Assembly: GCA_964464375.1 (NCBI GenBank)
Contig: CAYXFU010000005.1
Coordinates: 3,495-67,494, forward strand
Reading direction: 5' to 3'
DNA: 64,000 nt
From: an uncultured Hyphomicrobiales bacterium
GTDB lineage: Bacteria > Bacteroidota > Ignavibacteria > Kapaibacteriales > UBA2268
Position 1 is the stretch's first letter; the number at the start of each line of letters is the position of its first letter. The position numbers were made by a program, and so were the translations under genes. This document shows positions 1,214 through 10,676 of the stretch, in pieces. A model generated the notes under the pieces. The model was not told the DNA's origin. It saw nothing but the letters and a program-made list of their open reading frames with translations, and did no database searches.

Positions 1214-4200
1214 TTATAGCCAGCTGTATAAGTGGCTACGCATACCCATAATCAACTGAGACAATTCAGATTCAATGTTAATTAACTCCGCTTTATCCCA
1301 GGAGAATTCGTGAGACCAATCGTTATCTTCAGCATCTTCTATTGCTAATCTAGTGAATAATAATCTAGCTTTTATGTTCTTTTTGTCTGGATAGAGTTTA
1401 TGAACAAAATATGCATAGGTTCGCATCTGCAGTTCATAATGCTTTGCATGCGCTTCAACTGTAAATTTTTCGTTCACAATATTAGATTTCCAGTCCCATA
1501 TCTCGATTGAGTCTTCATTTTCAATAAGCAGATCGATGCTCCCGTTCAGAATATCACCATTAATAGGAAGTATCAGATTGAACTCCGGTTTTCCATTAAG
1601 TATATGTTTCAAATTATTCTTTATCAACTTTGTCCCAGCAATTTTCCGGCATTCAATCATCAATCTGGAAGAAAGACTGGATGGAGTATCAAAGTCTGCT
1701 TTAGTATATCGGGAAATTTCATTTTTCAAAGATTCAGTATTGATAATTCCATCTTTGTTTATCCACCTTGAAATACTCTGAAGAACTGAGTGAATTGCCA
1801 AACCTGCTGTAAACCCTGTAGTAATTGGCATATCGCTTTGAATTTCAAACTCCTTGTCATAATCAATTGGATTTATATCAGGCATTCCAAATATATATTT
1901 TTTTGAATAGGATAATGAATCAGACTCATAAGTCATCAATTTAGTAGGTGAAAACATTTCATTTGTTTGGGTAGATTTTATATCCTTATTGAGCATGATT
2001 TTGTCGGATGCTTTGATAATCCTAACTTCTGAAGTTATGCCCGAAATATCAATATTTGTTAAAATATCAATCGGATAAGTGATTTTTACAGGGTATATCC
2101 TGGATTGATTATATACATTCAGTTCATCCGATATGAGGATTGTATCTTTCGCAATTATTTCTGAAAATTGAATTTCCAATGAACTGATAATATCATCAAT
2201 AAATCCATTGATGGTATAAACATCCTTCTTCTCGTTGTACTTGTATGTCGATGAAATAACTATTTTACTCTTCGATCGGGTTAGTGCAACATACAGCAAT
2301 CTCTTTTTTTCGGCTTTCTCTGCAAGTTGGCTTATCCTTTTGTTAATCAGGAATTGTGGTGTATCTAAATCTTGCTTATAGAGTTCTTCTATTGCTACAG
2401 GAATTTTATAACCAATTCCGTATTCAGGTGTAATATAATAAGACGGATTATGGTTTGGTGAAAAATTACTATTAAACAATATAACTACCGGAAATTCCAA
2501 ACCCTTGGAGGCATGTATTGTCATAATATTTACAGCATTTTCACCCGTAATAATTGCTGCTTCGCTCTCGAGTATTTTATTTCCAGAGATAAAATTCATC
2601 TCCTCAACAAAATCATAGAGATTCTTAAAACCCTTATTCTCGTATTCACGTGCTATTTGAATAAATTTATCCATATTTGCTAATATCTGATATTTTGCAT
2701 TGCTATCATTGATTGTTCCATACCAGCCACAGGTCTGATTAATCATGATAATAATCTTTGATACCGGCATTGATGTTGAAGTTGCTATGATGTTTGTTAA
2801 TGAGTCAACTATAAGGTTGTAATTTGATTCAGTTATTAAATGGTTCAATTTCTCCCAAAAGGAGCCTTCAGCCTCTGATTTTGCTATTCTATAAATAGAA
2901 CTGTCGTCCATGTTGAAGTATCTTGATCTTAGGACCGAAATCAAAGCAGCATCATCATCCGGATTGTAAATAAACTTCATAAATGATAATATATCTATGA
3001 TCTCAGGAGATTGATAGAAACCTTTTCCTGAGTGAACCAGGAAAGGTATGTTGAATTCTATGAACTTTGTTGCTAATTTCTGGAAGTTATTTTTAGTCTG
3101 ACTTAAGATTGTTATATCTTTGAATTCATAATCGTTATCGGGATCATTCACAAGTTTGAGTATATATTTTGCGATTAGATTTTCTTCCAAAAAGCCTGTA
3201 TCCTCTTCTGCCTCATCAGAAGCTTCTTCTGAATTCTTTTGGTTTGACTTCTGTGGCAACTCTGACAGAAGAAATGAAATTGACCCTAACCTGGTATCTT
3301 TAATTATATTCAGGTTGTTCTCTTCCAATGTTTCTCCATCCTTTGAGCAAATCAATGGAATGTAATCAACATCATAATCAGAGTTTTTACTGTTCATTAA
3401 TTTGCCGCATACTTTGTTAACAAACGAAGCAGGCACTGGTGATAATCGAAAAGTTGTGGTTAAATTAACATTCCCAATAGAAGACTCCACATTTGCAAGA
3501 GCAGCTTCATTCGAGCTTGTTTTTGAATTCAAGTCTGATATATCTTTTCCTGCCTGCTGGAACACCCTGACATCTGCATTGCGGAAACCATAAATGCTCT
3601 GTTTAACGTCACCGACAATAAAAAGATTTATTAAATCCTTTCCCCCATCCTTGCCTTCAAGTTCCGGCATCAATTTTTTAACTATATCATACTGCAACTG
3701 ATTTGTATCCTGGAATTCATCCACCATCAGGAAATCAACCTTGCTTCGGATTCGTGCAACAACATCAGAATTGTCGAGAAGTTTGCTGGCATACATTTGC
3801 AGATCATTAATATCCAGTGCATTGAGCAATAATTTCTCTTCATCGATTGAATGTATTACAACTTTAGAAAAATCGAGCAACAGTCTTGAAAGACCAATTT
3901 GTTCTACCTGTTTGTCGAAATTATCAACATAATTCTTAACAATATCAATCTTTTTCTGCAGTTCCTTACCATCCAAACTGTTTAGATATTCAATATCATC
4001 GGCATTATCTAAACATTTTCTAAACTCAACTCTAACACCGGTATCGGTAAGCATGAATTTTTTTAGTGCCTGATACGCATCGAGAATTGCACTGATAGTT
4101 GAGTATTCCACTACATCAGTATTCAAATAATGGGATATTTTCTTTGCATAAACTAAAGCATCAGGAAATTTCTTAGTAAGGCTGTCGATTACTCCACGAT

Positions 4201-4951
4201 TGACAATTTGGATGAGTAATTCTGCATACTGCAGGAGTGGTTCAACATATTCTCTCTGCATAATCATTTTGATTTCATCAAGGATTTCCTGATCGGATTT
4301 TGCATAGAAAACATCCAGATTCTTCTTGATTTCAATCTTATCGATAATAGCCGATACGATTGTATTGACTTTATCCTGGTTTAACATTCTGAGCATCCGC
4401 TTGGAATTATTCCTTAATTCGAAGTCCGAAGATGTCAGCCAGTCTTCCAATGTACTCTCAATTGTCTTGTTGGTTAGTCTGATCTTATCAGGTTCACTCA
4501 ACTCAGCGAAATTGAGTGGCACACCGGCTTCAATAGGATATTCTTTCAATAATGAAGAACAAAAGCTATGGATTGTCGATATTCTGGCATAGGTCAAACC
4601 TTCGCGAATTTTTCTAAGAAGGTTTATTTGCTTAAAATCCTTTTTTTGACCCTCATCAGATTTAATAAGATTCGTCAGATCTTCATCAAATGAGCGGACT
4701 ACCTTCGCAAGCATTTCTGAAGCAGCTTTGCGGGTGAATGTTATTGCAAGAATCCTTGTAGGGTCAATTCTGAATTCATTACCTTTGAAGCTGTCAATCG
4801 GCAAAGTCGCATACTGTTTCAGAATTTTTTTAAATCTTTCGACAAGTACGAAAGTTTTCCCGGAACCTGCATTAGCAGTAACGGAAAGATGCTTATCTGT
4901 TGACAATGCCGATATTTGTTCACTGGTTAAGTTCACCGGGTATCCTGACAT
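1214..4951 (-). CDS. UvrD/PcrA-family superfamily-1 helicase fused to a C-terminal RecB-like PD-(D/E)XK nuclease (AddA/RecB-like helicase-nuclease)
   Basis: The 1245-aa product has an N-terminal Walker A (ANAGSGKTFVL). The C-terminus carries nuclease motifs (GSIDLLIEN..IEIWDWKSN, QMRTYAYF = QxxxY). Confidence 0.85.
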   Translation of the reverse strand: MSGYPVNLTSEQISALSTDKHLSVTANAGSGKTFVLVERFKKILKQYATLPIDSFKGNEFRIDPTRILAITFTRKAASEMLAKVVRSFDEDLTNLIKSDEGQKKDFKQINLLRKIREGLTYARISTIHSFCSSLLKEYPIEAGVPLNFAELSEPDKIRLTNKTIESTLEDWLTSSDFELRNNSKRMLRMLNQDKVNTIVSAIIDKIEIKKNLDVFYAKSDQEILDEIKMIMQREYVEPLLQYAELLIQIVNRGVIDSLTKKFPDALVYAKKISHYLNTDVVEYSTISAILDAYQALKKFMLTDTGVRVEFRKCLDNADDIEYLNSLDGKELQKKIDIVKNYVDNFDKQVEQIGLSRLLLDFSKVVIHSIDEEKLLLNALDINDLQMYASKLLDNSDVVARIRSKVDFLMVDEFQDTNQLQYDIVKKLMPELEGKDGGKDLINLFIVGDVKQSIYGFRNADVRVFQQAGKDISDLNSKTSSNEAALANVESSIGNVNLTTTFRLSPVPASFVNKVCGKLMNSKNSDYDVDYIPLICSKDGETLEENNLNIIKDTRLGSISFLLSELPQKSNQKNSEEASDEAEEDTGFLEENLIAKYILKLVNDPDNDYEFKDITILSQTKNNFQKLATKFIEFNIPFLVHSGKGFYQSPEIIDILSFMKFIYNPDDDAALISVLRSRYFNMDDSSIYRIAKSEAEGSFWEKLNHLITESNYNLIVDSLTNIIATSTSMPVSKIIIMINQTCGWYGTINDSNAKYQILANMDKFIQIAREYENKGFKNLYDFVEEMNFISGNKILESEAAIITGENAVNIMTIHASKGLEFPVVILFNSNFSPNHNPSYYITPEYGIGYKIPVAIEELYKQDLDTPQFLINKRISQLAEKAEKKRLLYVALTRSKSKIVISSTYKYNEKKDVYTINGFIDDIISSLEIQFSEIIAKDTILISDELNVYNQSRIYPVKITYPIDILTNIDISGITSEVRIIKASDKIMLNKDIKSTQTNEMFSPTKLMTYESDSLSYSKKYIFGMPDINPIDYDKEFEIQSDMPITTGFTAGLAIHSVLQSISRWINKDGIINTESLKNEISRYTKADFDTPSSLSSRLMIECRKIAGTKLIKNNLKHILNGKPEFNLILPINGDILNGSIDLLIENEDSIEIWDWKSNIVNEKFTVEAHAKHYELQMRTYAYFVHKLYPDKKNIKARLLFTRLAIEDAEDNDWSHEFSWDKAELINIESELSQLIMGMRSHLYSWL

Positions 4952-5018: not shown

Positions 5019-5091
5019 CGCGGGGTGGAGCAAATGGTAGCTCGTCGGGCTCATAACCCGAAGGCTCTAGGTTCAAGTCCTAGCCCCGCTA
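5019..5091 (+). tRNA. initiator tRNA-fMet (anticodon CAT)
   Basis: A 73-nt cloverleaf: acceptor CGCGGGG/CCCCGCU, U8, D-stem GAGC/GCTC, anticodon stem TCGGG/CCCGA with three consecutive G-C pairs, loop CTCATAA, T-arm CTAGG-TTCAAGT-CCTAG. Position 1 (C) is unpaired with position 72 (U). It is near-identical in layout to E. coli tRNAfMet, and CCA is not encoded. Confidence 0.88.
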
Positions 5092-5776: not shown

Positions 5777-6232
5777 GTGAATAATTATTTAAATTTAATT
5801 TTTATTCTCAATGATTGGGAGAACGCTATGCAGTGGGAGAATAACTTTGAAGTTGGTGTCAAAAGTATTGACATCGAGCATCGTGAATTAGTAAAAATGA
5901 TAACCAGGCTCGAGAACAGCCTTTCTAAGGGTATGGAATCATATCACTTGGGGTTAGTGATAAAAGATTTAGTCGCTTATACAAAACATCACTTTGCATC
6001 TGAAGAAAGTGTGATGAAACAAATTCATTTCGCTGAATTAGATAGGCATAAAAAGTTGCATGAAGATCTTATCCAGGATGTTATCAATATTTTGATAAAT
6101 CTCAAAGTGGGTAAAGATATAACGAGTAATGAGTTAATAGCTTTCTTGACAAAATGGTTAAACGAACATATAATTAATGAAGACAAGAAAATTGGAACCT
6201 ATTATGCAGGTTATATTGATATGAATCTATAG
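5777..6232 (+). CDS. bacteriohemerythrin (hemerythrin-like metal-binding protein); real start probably at 5828 (MQWENNF...)
   Basis: W-x-x-x-FEVGV-x-x-IDIEHRELV motif, plus downstream His/Glu ligand positions (HHFASEE, H..LHEDL) typical of hemerythrin-like domains. Confidence 0.75.
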   Translation: MNNYLNLIFILNDWENAMQWENNFEVGVKSIDIEHRELVKMITRLENSLSKGMESYHLGLVIKDLVAYTKHHFASEESVMKQIHFAELDRHKKLHEDLIQDVINILINLKVGKDITSNELIAFLTKWLNEHIINEDKKIGTYYAGYIDMNL

Positions 6233-6426
6233 GAAGAATAATCATGTTTCTATAGAATCTCTACCGATTGAAGGCATGAAGTAACCTTTCTGCGAGCAGT
6301 GCCAGTCGGCCCTGGAATTCATAGCCAAGAATTATTTCAAGTGAATTTCATGAAAAAAGAATGGTTCAGTACCAATTATGAAATTCGGAGAAGACCATTA
6401 CTGAGGATTTCGTTACTAATATTTAA

Positions 6427-6454
6427 CCCAGGCTTCTGCAAGCCAGGGTTTTTT
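6427..6454 (+). terminator. rho-independent terminator-like hairpin (CCCAGGCTT-ctgc-AAGCCAGGG + T6)
   Basis: GC-rich imperfect stem followed by TTTTTT, inside the decayed non-coding patch. Confidence 0.4.
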
Positions 6455-6540
6455 AATATTGAATATAAACTAATTAAAAAATTCCTTAATTTGAAGCCGA
6501 TAAAATGGCAATTCCAAAACGCTATCAAAAAATTTAGGAG

Positions 6541-6803
6541 GATTATCCGGAAGTTGCCCAAGCTTATGAAGAAATTGGAAATGGGAAATGGGAGATGCAG
6601 TGCACAGTACAGGAGCACTTGACGATAGGGCAAGAGCTTTGGTTAAGCTTGCTAGATCATCAGGGGTTCGTCTTGAGGTTGCTGTTTATTCCCATGCAAG
6701 AAAAGTATTGAAAGCCGGTTGCTCACCTGATAAGATGGAACATACGAATATGCTGGCTCTTCAAACAATCGGTCTTCCATCAACAACGGCAGCATTCAGG
6801 TGA
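6541..6803 (+). pseudogene. frameshifted remnant of a carboxymuconolactone decarboxylase (CMD/PcaC, AhpD-like) family gene
   Basis: Frame 1 (6541-~6600) reads DYPEVAQAYEEIGNGKWEM (CMD N-terminal-like). Frame 0 (6588-6803) reads GALDDRARALVKLARSSGVRLEVAVYSHARKVLKAGCSPDKMEHTNMLALQTIGLPSTTAAF, which aligns with the PcaC core (GLDRRSRSLVTLTALVARGHLPELEFHVRAALRNGVTPEEIKEVLLQTAIYAGVPAANTGF). There is no intact start. GC is locally much higher than in flanking DNA. Confidence 0.5.
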
Positions 6804-6831
6804 ATTGAGGATGTTTTAAATTAGGATTAAT

Positions 6832-7353
6832 ATGCAGAATCTTATAGCTCTATTTTGGTCATTCTTTAAGGTTGGATCATTTTCATTTGGAGGAGCGTAT
6901 TCGCTTCTACCATTGATTGAAAATGAGATTGTTGTCAATCATAGCTGGGTAACTAGGGACGAGTTCCTGAAGGTACTTGGAATGGTCGAGATCATACCCG
7001 GTGCTATTTCGATTAAATATGCAACTTATACTGGATTCAAAGTCGCCGGTGTACCTGGAATAATAGCGGCAAATTTAGGCAATATGATAATGCCTATCGG
7101 TTTGATTATACTTATTTCTAGCTTTTACTTCCATTTCGAGCAAAACAAACTGGTGATGAAAGCATTTCAGGGAGTTAAATTTGTTATAATCGGAATGATT
7201 CTTGCTGTCATGATAAAGTACCTTCAGAGCCAATACACAATGCCCAAGGAAATTATATTTATTGCTATCGGTCTTGTTCTCGCATTATTCTTTAAGTTTA
7301 ATCCTATTGTCATTATTTCAGTCGGTGTTATTCTCTCATTGATATTATTATGA
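6832..7353 (+). CDS. chrA: short-chain CHR family transporter (chromate-ion transporter ChrA-like, single half-size unit)
   Basis: CHR signature FKVGSFSFGGAYSLLPLIENEIVVNHSWVTRDEFLKVLGMVEIIPGAIS. The 173-aa product is entirely hydrophobic. Its stop overlaps the moaA start (ATGA). Confidence 0.7.
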   Translation: MQNLIALFWSFFKVGSFSFGGAYSLLPLIENEIVVNHSWVTRDEFLKVLGMVEIIPGAISIKYATYTGFKVAGVPGIIAANLGNMIMPIGLIILISSFYFHFEQNKLVMKAFQGVKFVIIGMILAVMIKYLQSQYTMPKEIIFIAIGLVLALFFKFNPIVIISVGVILSLILL

Positions 7354-8339
7354 TTCAACTCAAGGATGCATATAAACGCAAACATGACTATCTGAGGATA
7401 TCGCTTACAGACAGATGCAATTTGAATTGCATATATTGCAATCCAAACAGTAAACTTACTCTCTCTGAAAAATCAGATTTATTGACTTTTGAGGAAATTG
7501 AGAGAACTGTTGATATTTTCACATCATTAGGTGTGAATAAAATCCGTTTAACAGGTGGTGAACCACTAGCCAGGAAGAATATTACTGGTCTTTTCGTCAG
7601 ACTGAATGAAATTAAAAAAAGAAAACCATTCGAATTAGCGATTACGACTAATGGGTTATTACTTGAAGATAAGATTGAGGAACTGCAAGATTCTGGTCTA
7701 GACAGGGTCAACATTAGTCTCGATTCACTCAATCTACATACATTTGCCAGAATCACAGGCTCTGATGAGTTGATTACTGTTCTAAAATCAATAAACAAAG
7801 CTGTTCAACTAGGAATTAAAGTTAAGCTGAATACCGTTGTAATTAAGGGAATCAATGATTCGGAATTACTTGAATTCTGTAAGTTTTCAATAGATAATGG
7901 GATAAATGTCAGATTTATTGAATTTATGCCGTTCAGCAATAATGGATGGAATAATGAAAAATTCATCAGAACTGATGAAATGCTGGAACTAATTCGCTCC
8001 AAATATAAGCTTGAAAAATTACCTATTACAAATTCACCAGCTATTGATTACCAAATATCCGGAACAAAAGGAAAAATCAGCTTCATTAATTCAATTTCGG
8101 ATCATTTCTGCTCAAATTGCAACAGACTGAGATTAACTTCTATTGGAATGCTAAAGTTATGTTTGTTCTCATCTCATGAAAAAATGCTGAATTTAAAAAA
8201 GCTTATCTCCGAGAACAATGAGAACGATTCTATTGCAGCAATTATAAGCGACTACCTGCAATTGAAGGATTACGAACATCCATCACTCGAGAATTTGATT
8301 GCAATGAATAATAACAATATGATACAAATAGGTGGATGA
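7350..8339 (+). CDS. moaA: GTP 3',8-cyclase MoaA (molybdenum cofactor biosynthesis, radical SAM)
   Basis: CNLNCIYC radical-SAM cysteine triad, GGEPL, and overall MoaA length and order. Confidence 0.9.
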   Translation: MIQLKDAYKRKHDYLRISLTDRCNLNCIYCNPNSKLTLSEKSDLLTFEEIERTVDIFTSLGVNKIRLTGGEPLARKNITGLFVRLNEIKKRKPFELAITTNGLLLEDKIEELQDSGLDRVNISLDSLNLHTFARITGSDELITVLKSINKAVQLGIKVKLNTVVIKGINDSELLEFCKFSIDNGINVRFIEFMPFSNNGWNNEKFIRTDEMLELIRSKYKLEKLPITNSPAIDYQISGTKGKISFINSISDHFCSNCNRLRLTSIGMLKLCLFSSHEKMLNLKKLISENNENDSIAAIISDYLQLKDYEHPSLENLIAMNNNNMIQIGG

Positions 8340-8815
8340 TGGCTGAGTTAACACATTTGAACGAATCCGGCAAGGCACAAATGGTTGATGTTACCGATAA
8401 GGATGCTACTTACAGAACAGCATCGGCAAAGGGTGTTGTGTTGTTAAGTAACAATTCATACAATGCAATTAAAAACAACACTTTAATAAAAGGTGATGCC
8501 TTGGCAGTTGCTAAGATTGCCGGAATTCAAGCTGCTAAGAAAACAAGCGAGCTGATACCTTTATGTCATAATATATTCATTTCACAAATTGATCTCGATT
8601 TTATCCAAAACGATAGCTCACTTAGTATAACTATCATATCAAATGCTAAAACGGATGCAAAAACGGGGATTGAAATGGAAGCACTGACTGCTGTCTCTAT
8701 AGCCGCATTGACAATCTATGATATGTGCAAAAGCGTTGATAAATCAATTCAAATATCAGGTATTGAACTAATTAGCAAAACCGGTGGAAAATCCGGTGAT
8801 TATTATAAGGAATGA
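8336..8815 (+). CDS. moaC: cyclic pyranopterin monophosphate synthase MoaC
   Basis: MVDVTDK...KGDALAVAKIAGIQAAKKTSELIPLCHNI is a MoaC hallmark. Its start overlaps the moaA stop. Confidence 0.9.
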   Translation: MMAELTHLNESGKAQMVDVTDKDATYRTASAKGVVLLSNNSYNAIKNNTLIKGDALAVAKIAGIQAAKKTSELIPLCHNIFISQIDLDFIQNDSSLSITIISNAKTDAKTGIEMEALTAVSIAALTIYDMCKSVDKSIQISGIELISKTGGKSGDYYKE

Positions 8816-8816
8816 A

Positions 8817-9266
8817 ATGACAACTTCTGGCAAAATAGAAGCCATATCTATAAGTACCAAAAAGGGAATTCCAAAATCGAATATTGACTCTGCTATACTC
8901 AGAGAAAACTGGGGTATCGAAGGTGATGCCCACGCTGGTGAGTGGCACAGACAGATATCCCTATTAGCAGATGAGAGCATTGATAAGATACGCAATGCCG
9001 GGCTACCCGAAGTAAAAGCTGGAGCATTTGCCGAAAATATAACTACAAAAAATATCGATTTACTTTCAGTTCAAATTGGTTCAAAGTTAAGAATCGGGAA
9101 AGATATTATTCTCGAAATTACACAGATTGGCAAGGAATGTCATTCAAGATGTGCTATTTATCAAATCGTTGGTGACTGTGTTATGCCAAAAGAAGGTATT
9201 TTCGCTAAGGTTCTTCATGGTGGTAAGATTAGCATTGATGATAGGATAGAATACTATGATATATGA
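8817..9266 (+). CDS. MOSC domain-containing protein (YiiM-like); ORF track start 8784, likely real start 8817
   Basis: MOSC motifs GIEGDAHAG, FAENITTKNIDL, LEITQIGKECHSRC. It lies immediately after the moaC stop. Confidence 0.8.
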   Translation: MTTSGKIEAISISTKKGIPKSNIDSAILRENWGIEGDAHAGEWHRQISLLADESIDKIRNAGLPEVKAGAFAENITTKNIDLLSVQIGSKLRIGKDIILEITQIGKECHSRCAIYQIVGDCVMPKEGIFAKVLHGGKISIDDRIEYYDI

Positions 9267-9506: not shown

Positions 9507-10676
9507 ATGACTGAAATTGAACGTAAAAACTTACGACTAATAATAGAGAATCTTAAAAATTTGACAAATTCCAGGAATGATTTAGAAACCATTTTGTTTA
9601 TTCCCTTAGGTAAATCTATTAAGCAGGAGGACAAGGAAATATATAGTGATTTATTCGACACTTATAACCGATTTCTTGAGAAACATGCACAGGCACAATC
9701 ATATATAAAATCTCTTGCTAAGGGAGATCTGAATGCTGTGCCACCATCAAAAAATCTTCTGGCTTCTCCCTTCAAGAATCTTCATGCAAATTTGAATCAT
9801 CTTGTTTGGCAGACAAAGCAAGTAGCTACCGGTGATTTGAACCAGAGAATGGATTTTATGGGAGAGTTTTCTAAATCATTTAATATCCTTATTAGTTCAT
9901 TGAAAGAGAAACAAAAGATAGAAGAAGAGTTAAGAGTTAATCAGCAGGACCTACAAGATTCAAATGTAACAAAAGATAGATTTCTATCCATTATTGCACA
10001 TGACTTGAGAAATCCAATCGGTGCGGTAAAAAATGCTCTTGATTTCCTGAGGGATCATCCGGAAATGCTTAGTGATTCTGACACTCCCGATTTTATTGTT
10101 GAATTAGCCGAAACATCAAAAACAGCTTATGATTTGTTGGAAAATCTGCTTACCTGGTCAAGGTCGCAAAGAGGTATTATTCAGTTCAATCCTGAAGAAA
10201 ATGATTTATATTATCTGATAAAGGAAGTCGTTCCTTTGGTACAGATTAATGCCGATAACAAGAAGATAGCAATCACTTCGAATGTGGAAGAAAATACTTT
10301 GATCGAAGCAGATTATAATATGGTGGCTACCATAATTAGAAATCTGGTAACAAATGCGATAAAGTTTACTAAAGAATCCGGAGAAGTAAAAATAAATGCT
10401 TACCCTGATGAGGCTACTAAGGATAAGAAGGATAAATATTTGGTTATTTCTATTGAAGATAATGGCGTAGGAATTAGCCAGGACAATATTGGGAAATTGT
10501 TTAAAATAGATCAGAATTATACCTCAGAAGGTACTAACAGAGAAAAGGGATCCGGATTAGGTTTAATCCTCTGCACTGAGTTTGTGGACAAACACAGCGG
10601 TAAGATATGGGTTGAAAGTCAATTAAACGTTGGGAGCAAATTCAAATTTACAGTGCCCTTATCAAAAACAGAATAA
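9507..10676 (+). CDS. sensor histidine kinase (soluble, coiled-coil/HAMP-like N-terminus, HisKA + HATPase_c)
   Basis: H-box IIAHDLRNPIGAV, then N (VTNAIKFT), G1 (DNGVGIS) and G2 (GSGLGL) boxes. No TM segment. Strong SD (GAGGTGAG) upstream. Confidence 0.85.
   Translation: MTEIERKNLRLIIENLKNLTNSRNDLETILFIPLGKSIKQEDKEIYSDLFDTYNRFLEKHAQAQSYIKSLAKGDLNAVPPSKNLLASPFKNLHANLNHLVWQTKQVATGDLNQRMDFMGEFSKSFNILISSLKEKQKIEEELRVNQQDLQDSNVTKDRFLSIIAHDLRNPIGAVKNALDFLRDHPEMLSDSDTPDFIVELAETSKTAYDLLENLLTWSRSQRGIIQFNPEENDLYYLIKEVVPLVQINADNKKIAITSNVEENTLIEADYNMVATIIRNLVTNAIKFTKESGEVKINAYPDEATKDKKDKYLVISIEDNGVGISQDNIGKLFKIDQNYTSEGTNREKGSGLGLILCTEFVDKHSGKIWVESQLNVGSKFKFTVPLSKTE

Follow-up and report, generated by a model that had tools for sequence, protein, structure and literature searches.

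The locus analysed here lies in a 64-kb stretch of contig CAYXFU010000005.1 (64,000 nucleotides, hereafter the window) and comprises a gene for a single-domain membrane protein of the CHR (chromate-transporter) family, followed by the molybdenum cofactor (Moco) genes moaA and moaC and a gene for a small MOSC-domain protein (Table 1). All four genes run in the same direction and follow one another with ATGA overlaps or a gap of 1 nt: the stop codon of the short-chain CHR (SCHR) gene and the start of moaA share the ATGA at 7350-7353, and moaA and moaC are overlapped in the same manner at 8336-8339. For the MOSC gene, the most likely start is the ATG located 1 nt past the moaC stop, the upstream GTG being just the earliest option; the equivalent ATG was chosen by gene callers in another metagenome contig (L001). 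An AGGA motif is found 5 nt ahead of the SCHR start. An earlier reading of the bare sequence (the original prediction) had described these open reading frames (ORFs) as one tightly coupled unit, and all four ORFs and both ATGA overlaps were confirmed.

Profile searches assigned each product to its family. SCHR matched PF02417 with an E value of 2.6e-41 and 141.9 bits (cut-off 28.6), residues 6-168 covering positions 2-164 of the 166-position profile. MoaA scored 346.9 bits against the equivalog model TIGR02666 (cut-off 284), whereas MoaC gave 182 bits with PF01967 and 220.1 bits with NF006870 (cut-off 162). The MOSC protein was recognized by PF03473 at 42 bits (cut-off 22.7), and in the MoaC/MOSC fusion model NF011069 (221.5 bits) it corresponds to the C-terminal half.

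Table 1. The SCHR-moa cassette and the region directly upstream of it in the window (Tuco, tungsten cofactor).
Feature	Position	Strand	Basis
CHR-family single-domain membrane protein (SCHR), 173 aa	6832-7353	+	PF02417 Chromate_transp
moaA (GTP 3',8-cyclase)	7350-8339	+	Radical_SAM and Mob_synth_C; TIGR02666
moaC (cyclic pyranopterin monophosphate synthase)	8336-8815	+	PF01967; NF006870
Small MOSC-domain protein	8817-9266 (first possible start GTG 8784)	+	PF03473
Spacer between hemerythrin gene and probable relic terminator; site of the Moco/Tuco aptamer in relatives	6233-6415	+	
Intrinsic-terminator-like hairpin with T-run, AACCCAGGCTT-CTGC-AAGCCAGGGTT-TTTTTT	6416-6447	+	terminator scan
Pseudogene of the carboxymuconolactone-decarboxylase (CMD; AhpD-like) family (PF02627), ordinarily the first gene of the operon	6505-6831	+	

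SCHR belongs to the CHR superfamily (Pfam PF02417; TC 2.A.51), in which short-chain proteins are those with a single CHR domain and about 200 aa or less; the window protein has 173 aa and one PF02417 stretch. Of the two CHR motifs defined previously (PMC2751784), GG-X12-V-X4-W is exact (G20 G21 ... V34 ... W39), and PGP-X10-G-X7-G is present only as a variant (P56 G57 A58 ... G68 ... G73 ... G76). It resembles the N and the C halves of CHR proteins with two domains to roughly the same degree, as it does the Bacillus ChrA and ChrB models of NCBIfam (NF053760, 61.8 bits; NF053759, 64.7 bits; both below the cut-off of 250), and we therefore regard it as an undifferentiated half, neither of N nor of C type. 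Only CHR-family matches were obtained in Pfam and NCBIfam, with no homology to ModABC, WtpABC, TupABC, MOT1, or MOT2; the sole exception, below threshold, was PF01699 Na_Ca_ex (E value of 0.0054, 17.1 bits versus a cut-off of 24.9). An AlphaFold2 model (pLDDT 86.8) has eight helices and says nothing on the substrate.

The closest relative of the window protein is encoded at locus L007 in the Ignavibacteria metagenome-assembled genome (MAG) CAIOZA01 and is 97% identical to it, while a more distant homologue (locus L004) shares 60% identity; the identical protein is present on several metagenome contigs. Comparison of the window with L007 yielded ratios of nonsynonymous to synonymous substitution (dN/dS) of 0.03 for SCHR, 0.11 for moaA, 0.12 for moaC, and 0.10 for the MOSC gene, against 0.25 for the CMD remnant listed in Table 1. 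SCHR is under strong purifying selection and is the most constrained gene of the cassette.

To place the cassette in context, a collection of species-representative genomes was scanned with an alignment of the SCHR clade, which gave 80 loci, 79 of Ignavibacteriota type and one from Omnitrophota (L086). Translated ORFs of the loci were then searched with the window proteins and with the CMD, MoeA, and MobA proteins of L004. As the original prediction had proposed to check, moaA stands directly 3' of SCHR in relatives, namely in 69 of the 72 loci that extend far enough downstream, and a CMD gene lies directly 5' of it in 65 of the 73 that extend far enough upstream. Estimated gaps are short, with a median of 3 nt between SCHR and moaA (30 nt or less in 61 of 74) and a median of 2 nt between CMD and SCHR. 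Among the 79 loci, moaC was found in 70, moeA in 60, mobA in 56, and the MOSC gene in 54.

Five of these loci (L012, L016, L044, L074, and L082) come from MAGs labelled Syntrophomonadaceae, Acidobacteriota, Bacillota, Chlorobiota, or Rhodothermaceae. They show the typical Ignavibacteriota operon layout and SCHR identities of 54-61%, and their odd labels probably reflect mis-binning or, possibly, transfer. L082 is the sole member of the SCHR clade without moa neighbours; a gene for a DUF364 protein (PF04016) lies 1.7 kb off, the features concerned being at 7576-8301 (minus strand) and 9962-10483 of that locus. From genome context, DUF364 has been connected with the transport of molybdate, tungstate, and vanadium (PMC2954201).

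The operon is headed in relatives by a riboswitch. An Rfam search placed the Moco/Tuco aptamer RF01055 just upstream of CMD, or of SCHR where CMD is missing, in 14 of 20 short loci (38-89 bits; gathering score 36) and in L007, L015, L022, and L047 as well, adding up to 18 loci; the score in L007, the closest species, was 64 bits. A covariance model (R1) built from 12 of these aptamers detected the element in 58 loci, always on the operon strand; of the 73 loci whose upstream sequence extends for 700 nt or more, 55 have it. A strong terminator-like hairpin follows 39 of 57 aptamers within about 100 nt, versus 28 of 300 random windows of the same loci. An aptamer followed by a terminator is the usual layout of a switch that would end transcription upon ligand binding, and published members of this riboswitch class precede genes for molybdate transporters, for Moco biosynthesis, and for Moco-dependent enzymes (PMC2408646). 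Since these aptamers and terminators head the SCHR operon, SCHR is part of the Moco regulon in relatives and not just of its neighbourhood.

A length of 125 nt or less sets apart 11 of the 57 aptamers, namely those of L007, L056, L023, L019, L009, and six further loci. These short aptamers are devoid of an extra hairpin that the remaining ones carry between GCCTGCC and GCAAAGGAG, and this hairpin probably corresponds to P3, an optional stem in the published motif. A missing P3 stem has been correlated with the tungsten cofactor (PMC2408646); if the hairpin is indeed P3, the operons with short aptamers, including that of L007, may answer to the tungsten rather than the molybdenum cofactor.

In L054 (7273-9313), L080 (7511-9475), and L038 (7669-9632), a Moco aptamer lies 2.4-2.7 kb upstream of SCHR, and the order there is aptamer, DoxX membrane protein, ScdA_N/hemerythrin protein (RIC-like), a second hemerythrin-like protein, and CMD. 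A bacteriohemerythrin gene (5777-6232) is also situated just upstream of the relic region in the window, and a tie between hemerythrin-type proteins and the SCHR-moa operon is possible. A fluoride riboswitch (RF01734, 43.9 bits) at 19532-19608 of L047 (Rosettibacter primus), about 9 kb downstream of the operon, is unrelated.

Using the L086 protein as the query, we reached a sister clade (1,454 matches). In all six Omnitrophota loci examined the genes moaA, moaC, MOSC, mogA/moaB, and SCHR occur in this order, and in five of the six SCHR, the last of them, adjoins the gene before it or overlaps with it. A formate-dehydrogenase-type molybdopterin enzyme (TIGR01591, 884 bits) is encoded ahead of this block and is itself preceded by mobA in four loci; the fuller order reads mobA, fdhA, FeS subunit, FAD subunit, mobB-like, moaA, moaC, MOSC, mogA, and SCHR. 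Neither a CMD gene nor a second CHR gene is present in the six loci, and R1 detected no riboswitch in L086-L089. Because the same clade is linked to Moco genes here in a different gene order, the association points to a functional link to Moco synthesis rather than to inherited synteny.

The limits of the clade were set by a search of 1.84 billion cluster representatives, which returned 12,839 CHR relatives, just 10 of them at an E value of 1e-30 or lower. At 50% clustering, the Ignavibacteriota and Omnitrophota proteins seem to be represented by one match, P0241 (56% identity), after which came, with 25-45% identity, proteins with two CHR domains and further SCHRs. By sequence, the window SCHR falls in a tight clade from these two phyla with members that are more than 50% identical; those listed carry PF02417 alone, and almost all are 171-181 aa long, with a few outliers of 161-196 aa. 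The nearest outgroup, SCHRs of Firmicutes/Thermaerobacterales (P0254, P0391, and P0394; 41-45% identity), resembles the window protein in having 173 aa and no adjacent partner. Unlike the clade, these SCHRs are encoded beside genes of metal-resistance type and not beside Moco genes; their neighbours are an ArsR-type regulator and a P-type ATPase at one locus and a major facilitator superfamily gene at the other. The lone state is not special to the clade, but the Moco link is.

We then asked whether a second CHR half exists. No second CHR-like ORF was found in the window by tblastn and by phmmer (--max) on six-frame ORFs, and a hidden Markov model of the clade (--max, E<1e-3) revealed no partner ORF within 7-10 kb at 86 loci; the Pfam gene tables of the loci added later contained no second CHR either. 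The claim of the original prediction that only one half is present thus holds for the window and for the neighbourhoods of its relatives within 7-10 kb. Its premise that such proteins normally work in pairs agrees with the literature, where SCHR genes are "usually present as pairs" and both ywrA and ywrB are needed in Bacillus subtilis (PMC2751784), but it does not extend to this clade and its nearest outgroup, in which lone SCHRs are the rule.

The patch directly upstream of SCHR in the window was also proposed to be decayed and perhaps to hold the remains of a lost partner gene. The decay is real; the content is a CMD pseudogene and a terminator, not a CHR gene. Three-frame translation of 6200-6835 gave pieces of the CMD-family protein that precedes SCHR in L004, and the fragment at 6588-6803 still matches PF02627 at 28.3 bits, whereas the L007 counterpart is an intact CMD gene of 103 aa scoring 65.3 bits. 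Relative to L007, the window copy carries a CAG-to-TAG change at codon 11, a TGG-to-TGA and an AAG-to-TAG change, a 14-nt insertion, and a His-to-Tyr replacement in the EGAVHSH motif. The same lesions occur in contig L001, and the same truncated 71-aa CMD gene call is found in two more metagenome contigs (L002 and L003). The gene is intact in the closest species, and the remnant is a genuine and recent pseudogene.

Three other explanations of this patch were considered. A remnant of an SCHR partner was excluded by the three-frame translation and the alignments to L007 and L004. Sequencing error is unlikely to lie behind the lesions, since the sequence is identical in contigs of three further metagenome samples. 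Stop-codon recoding, including selenocysteine insertion, was ruled out as well: the TGA replaces a Trp codon, the TAGs replace Gln and Lys codons, an insertion is present, and the motif His is gone.

Upstream of the pseudogene, neither RF01055 nor any other Rfam family was matched near the window operon, be it at the gathering threshold or at E<=10, and R1 run without filters on the window gave 5.9 bits at best (E value of 1.9; 6235-6348), that is, no detectable aptamer. The terminator-like hairpin, in turn, is spaced from the CMD start like the terminator behind the L007 aptamer, and it resembles terminators behind the aptamers of other relatives, e.g., AAACCCCGCACTGCAAGGCGGGGTTT of L067. A Moco/Tuco riboswitch was probably lost here, with its expression platform surviving as this hairpin. 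In a BLAST comparison, the window matched L007 only over 6446-9242 (85% nucleotide identity); the flanks were unrelated, and there was no homology upstream of 6446. The cassette therefore occupies a different genomic place than in L007, and the aptamer was probably lost on relocation beside the hemerythrin gene.

A promoter-like site, TTGAAA and TAAGAT spaced by 17 nt with a TG ahead of the latter, lies at 6708-6736 within the pseudogene, and the L007 coding sequence departs from it at the -10-like box. On a speculative note, the SCHR-moa genes may have gained a new promoter in this way. Farther upstream in the window, a tRNA gene (RF00005, 63 bits; 5019-5091) lies between a UvrD/PD-(D/E)XK helicase-nuclease gene (1214-4951, minus strand) and the hemerythrin gene.

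To our knowledge, dedicated uptake of molybdenum or tungsten (Mo/W) in prokaryotes has been established for ABC systems only (ModABC, WtpABC, and TupABC). Such systems resemble SCHR in that their genes accompany Moco genes and follow the same class of riboswitch (PMC2408646), but they are ATP driven, depend on binding proteins, and are unrelated in sequence and architecture, whereas SCHR is predicted to be a small secondary carrier. No Mod-, Tup-, or Wtp-type ABC system was found beside the operon in 1.45 Mb of flanks from 95 loci, where the sole two ABC ATPases were of the Pst/PhoU and ABC-F types. In the scanned part of the window there was no Mo/W-type ABC transporter, the sole ABC system there being of the SBP_bac_3 (amino-acid) type. 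A census from 2018, in which prokaryotes were judged by ABC systems only, counted 278 of 3,683 Mo-using bacteria without a known Mo/W transporter and concluded that additional uptake systems have to exist (PMC6147048). Ignavibacterium and Melioribacter are not among the entries in the accessible part of the supplements to that census; the genome papers of I. album and M. roseus describe molybdoenzymes and no Mo transporter.

The window protein also differs from characterized members of its own superfamily. YwrB and YwrA of B. subtilis (Chr3N/Chr3C) likewise have a single CHR domain of about 170-200 aa, PF02417, and the GG-X12-V-X4-W motif, but they are encoded as an adjacent pair, are both required, are regulated by chromate, and confer chromate resistance (PMC2751784); SCHR is encoded by one gene, has no N or C type, and is set in a Moco operon and, in relatives, a riboswitch regulon. 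Long-chain ChrA proteins (Pseudomonas aeruginosa and Cupriavidus metallidurans; TIGR00937) contain a homologous domain, and SCHR aligns to either of their halves at 30-45% identity. At half their size it would need to oligomerize, and it differs in genomic context and in the predicted uptake of Mo/W. Another SCHR without a partner, Arth_4251 of Arthrobacter sp. FB24, is chromate induced, resides in a chromate-resistance determinant beside a full-length chrA, lacks a Moco link, is without one of the CHR motifs, and is devoid of predicted transmembrane helices (PMC2751784). Paired chromate-resistance determinants are the subject of the SCHR literature (PMC2751784), and a full-text search retrieved nothing tying CHR proteins to Moco, molybdate uptake, the Moco riboswitch, or Ignavibacteria. 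The SCHR-Moco association thus appears to be undescribed so far and to be a variant, functional and architectural, within a known superfamily.

In the Moco pathway, molybdate or tungstate is the one substrate that needs import, and it is inserted by MoeA. CHR relatives with known activity handle tetrahedral oxyanions, i.e., chromate and sulfate (PMC2751784), which equal molybdate and tungstate in shape and charge. A supply role fits an operon that is repressed by its end product, and a homo-oligomer is expected from an operon that encodes one undifferentiated half only. Given the oxyanion-type family, the co-transcription, frequent translational coupling, and co-repression with the pathway genes, and the missing adjacent ABC importer for Mo/W, uptake is the most economical reading. 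From context and regulatory logic, which supply its substrate, direction, and oligomeric state, we consider the odds somewhat in favour of SCHR being a self-sufficient, homo-oligomeric molybdate/tungstate uptake permease that feeds Moco synthesis. The original prediction had raised the possibility that the single SCHR handles a Mo/W oxyanion; synteny, recurrence in two phyla, and the riboswitch lend this strong comparative support, while the substrate itself is something we infer.

In the mechanism that we propose, SCHR would self-assemble into a homo-oligomer, restoring the two-domain architecture of long CHR proteins, and would import molybdate and/or tungstate, both tetrahedral oxyanions, for insertion into molybdopterin by MoeA. 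In most species, the operon (CMD, SCHR, moaA, moaC, MOSC, moeA, and mobA) would be shut off by the Moco/Tuco riboswitch and its terminator, such that transporter and pathway would be co-produced when the cofactor is scarce. In the window lineage, the cassette would have moved, lost the aptamer, and had its CMD gene inactivated, with SCHR-moaA-moaC-MOSC kept intact and translationally coupled. A broader claim, to which we give slightly less than an even chance, is that the clade founds a new class of bacterial Mo/W importers: a CHR half-transporter of about 173 residues, acting as a homo-oligomer, possibly of dual topology, encoded in a Moco/Tuco operon, riboswitch controlled in most species, and supplying Mo/W in Ignavibacteriota and Omnitrophota.

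Several points weigh against an uptake permease. All biochemically characterized bacterial CHR proteins that we know of are exporters. The window copy has no aptamer yet keeps the terminator upstream, which leaves transcription of the cassette here in question, and phmmer found no moeA, mobA, mogA, or molybdoenzyme gene in the window. The genomes may encode ModABC, TupABC, or WtpABC, or an unlinked second CHR gene, elsewhere, as the scans covered the locus flanks. No solved structure of a CHR-family protein was found, so there is no binding site to compare, and the lysine-plus-arginine charge bias, which ranges from -1.9 to -3.5 depending on the clade and the topology model, argues neither for nor against the dual topology of an antiparallel homodimer.

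Other roles for SCHR were weighed against the same data. It could carry another solute of the pathway, such as a sulfur oxyanion for molybdopterin sulfuration or a pterin or phosphate intermediate, perhaps together with the CMD protein, but we regard this as rather unlikely. The tight coupling of the CMD gene to SCHR in Ignavibacteriota would fit such a role, and sulfate has been proposed as a CHR substrate. However, none of the six Omnitrophota operons contains CMD, and in the window the gene is dead while SCHR is still constrained, so SCHR does not depend on CMD, and a role tied to that protein is weakened. Furthermore, molybdopterin receives its sulfur from cysteine via the MoaD thiocarboxylate and not from an imported oxyanion, molybdate or tungstate again being the one compound that has to cross the membrane.

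It is unlikely that SCHR is an exporter shielding Moco synthesis or molybdoenzymes from a competing or toxic oxyanion, be it chromate, sulfate, the "wrong" group-6 oxyanion, or excess molybdate. The idea draws on characterized CHR proteins, including the Bacillus SCHR pair, which give resistance through efflux (PMC2751784), and on the known disturbance of molybdenum homeostasis by chromate (PMC9171197). It is a poor fit to the regulatory logic: behind a Moco/Tuco aptamer and terminator the operon would be turned off by the finished cofactor, and co-repression with biosynthesis is illogical for efflux. Nor was a ChrB-, ChrS-, or other chromate-type regulator present in the annotated neighbourhoods.

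Quite unlikely, in our judgment, is that SCHR forms one half of an ordinary heterodimeric chromate/sulfate transporter with a partner encoded elsewhere, in which case its position in a Moco operon would be uninformative on the substrate. The dual requirement and usual pairing reported for Bacillus (PMC2751784) would agree with a distant partner, and SCHR-sized relatives at 36-42% identity do exist in databases. No partner was found within 7-10 kb at the loci searched, however; the riboswitch-controlled operon contains only one half, two phyla retain the Moco linkage despite their different gene orders, and the protein is of neither N nor C type, with a nearest outgroup that is lone too. Finally, it is very unlikely that the window cassette is decaying and SCHR-moaA-moaC-MOSC is no longer expressed, as the dead first gene, the missing aptamer with its retained terminator, the lack of moeA, mobA, and mogA in the window, and the flanks unrelated to L007 might suggest, for the four ORFs are intact and score above curated cut-offs, their dN/dS values stay below that of the CMD remnant, the same state recurs in several metagenome samples, and the promoter-like site and the AGGA motif precede SCHR.

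Should SCHR act as a molybdate/tungstate uptake permease, it would represent a new route of trace-metal acquisition and a new gene class in the Moco/Tuco riboswitch regulon, and it would explain how Mo/W is acquired in Ignavibacteriota and Omnitrophota, lineages for which no dedicated transporter has been described. "Chromate transporter" annotations in the genomes of anaerobes would then have to be read differently, and studies of structure and mechanism could draw on the clade for a minimal CHR protein encoded by a single gene.

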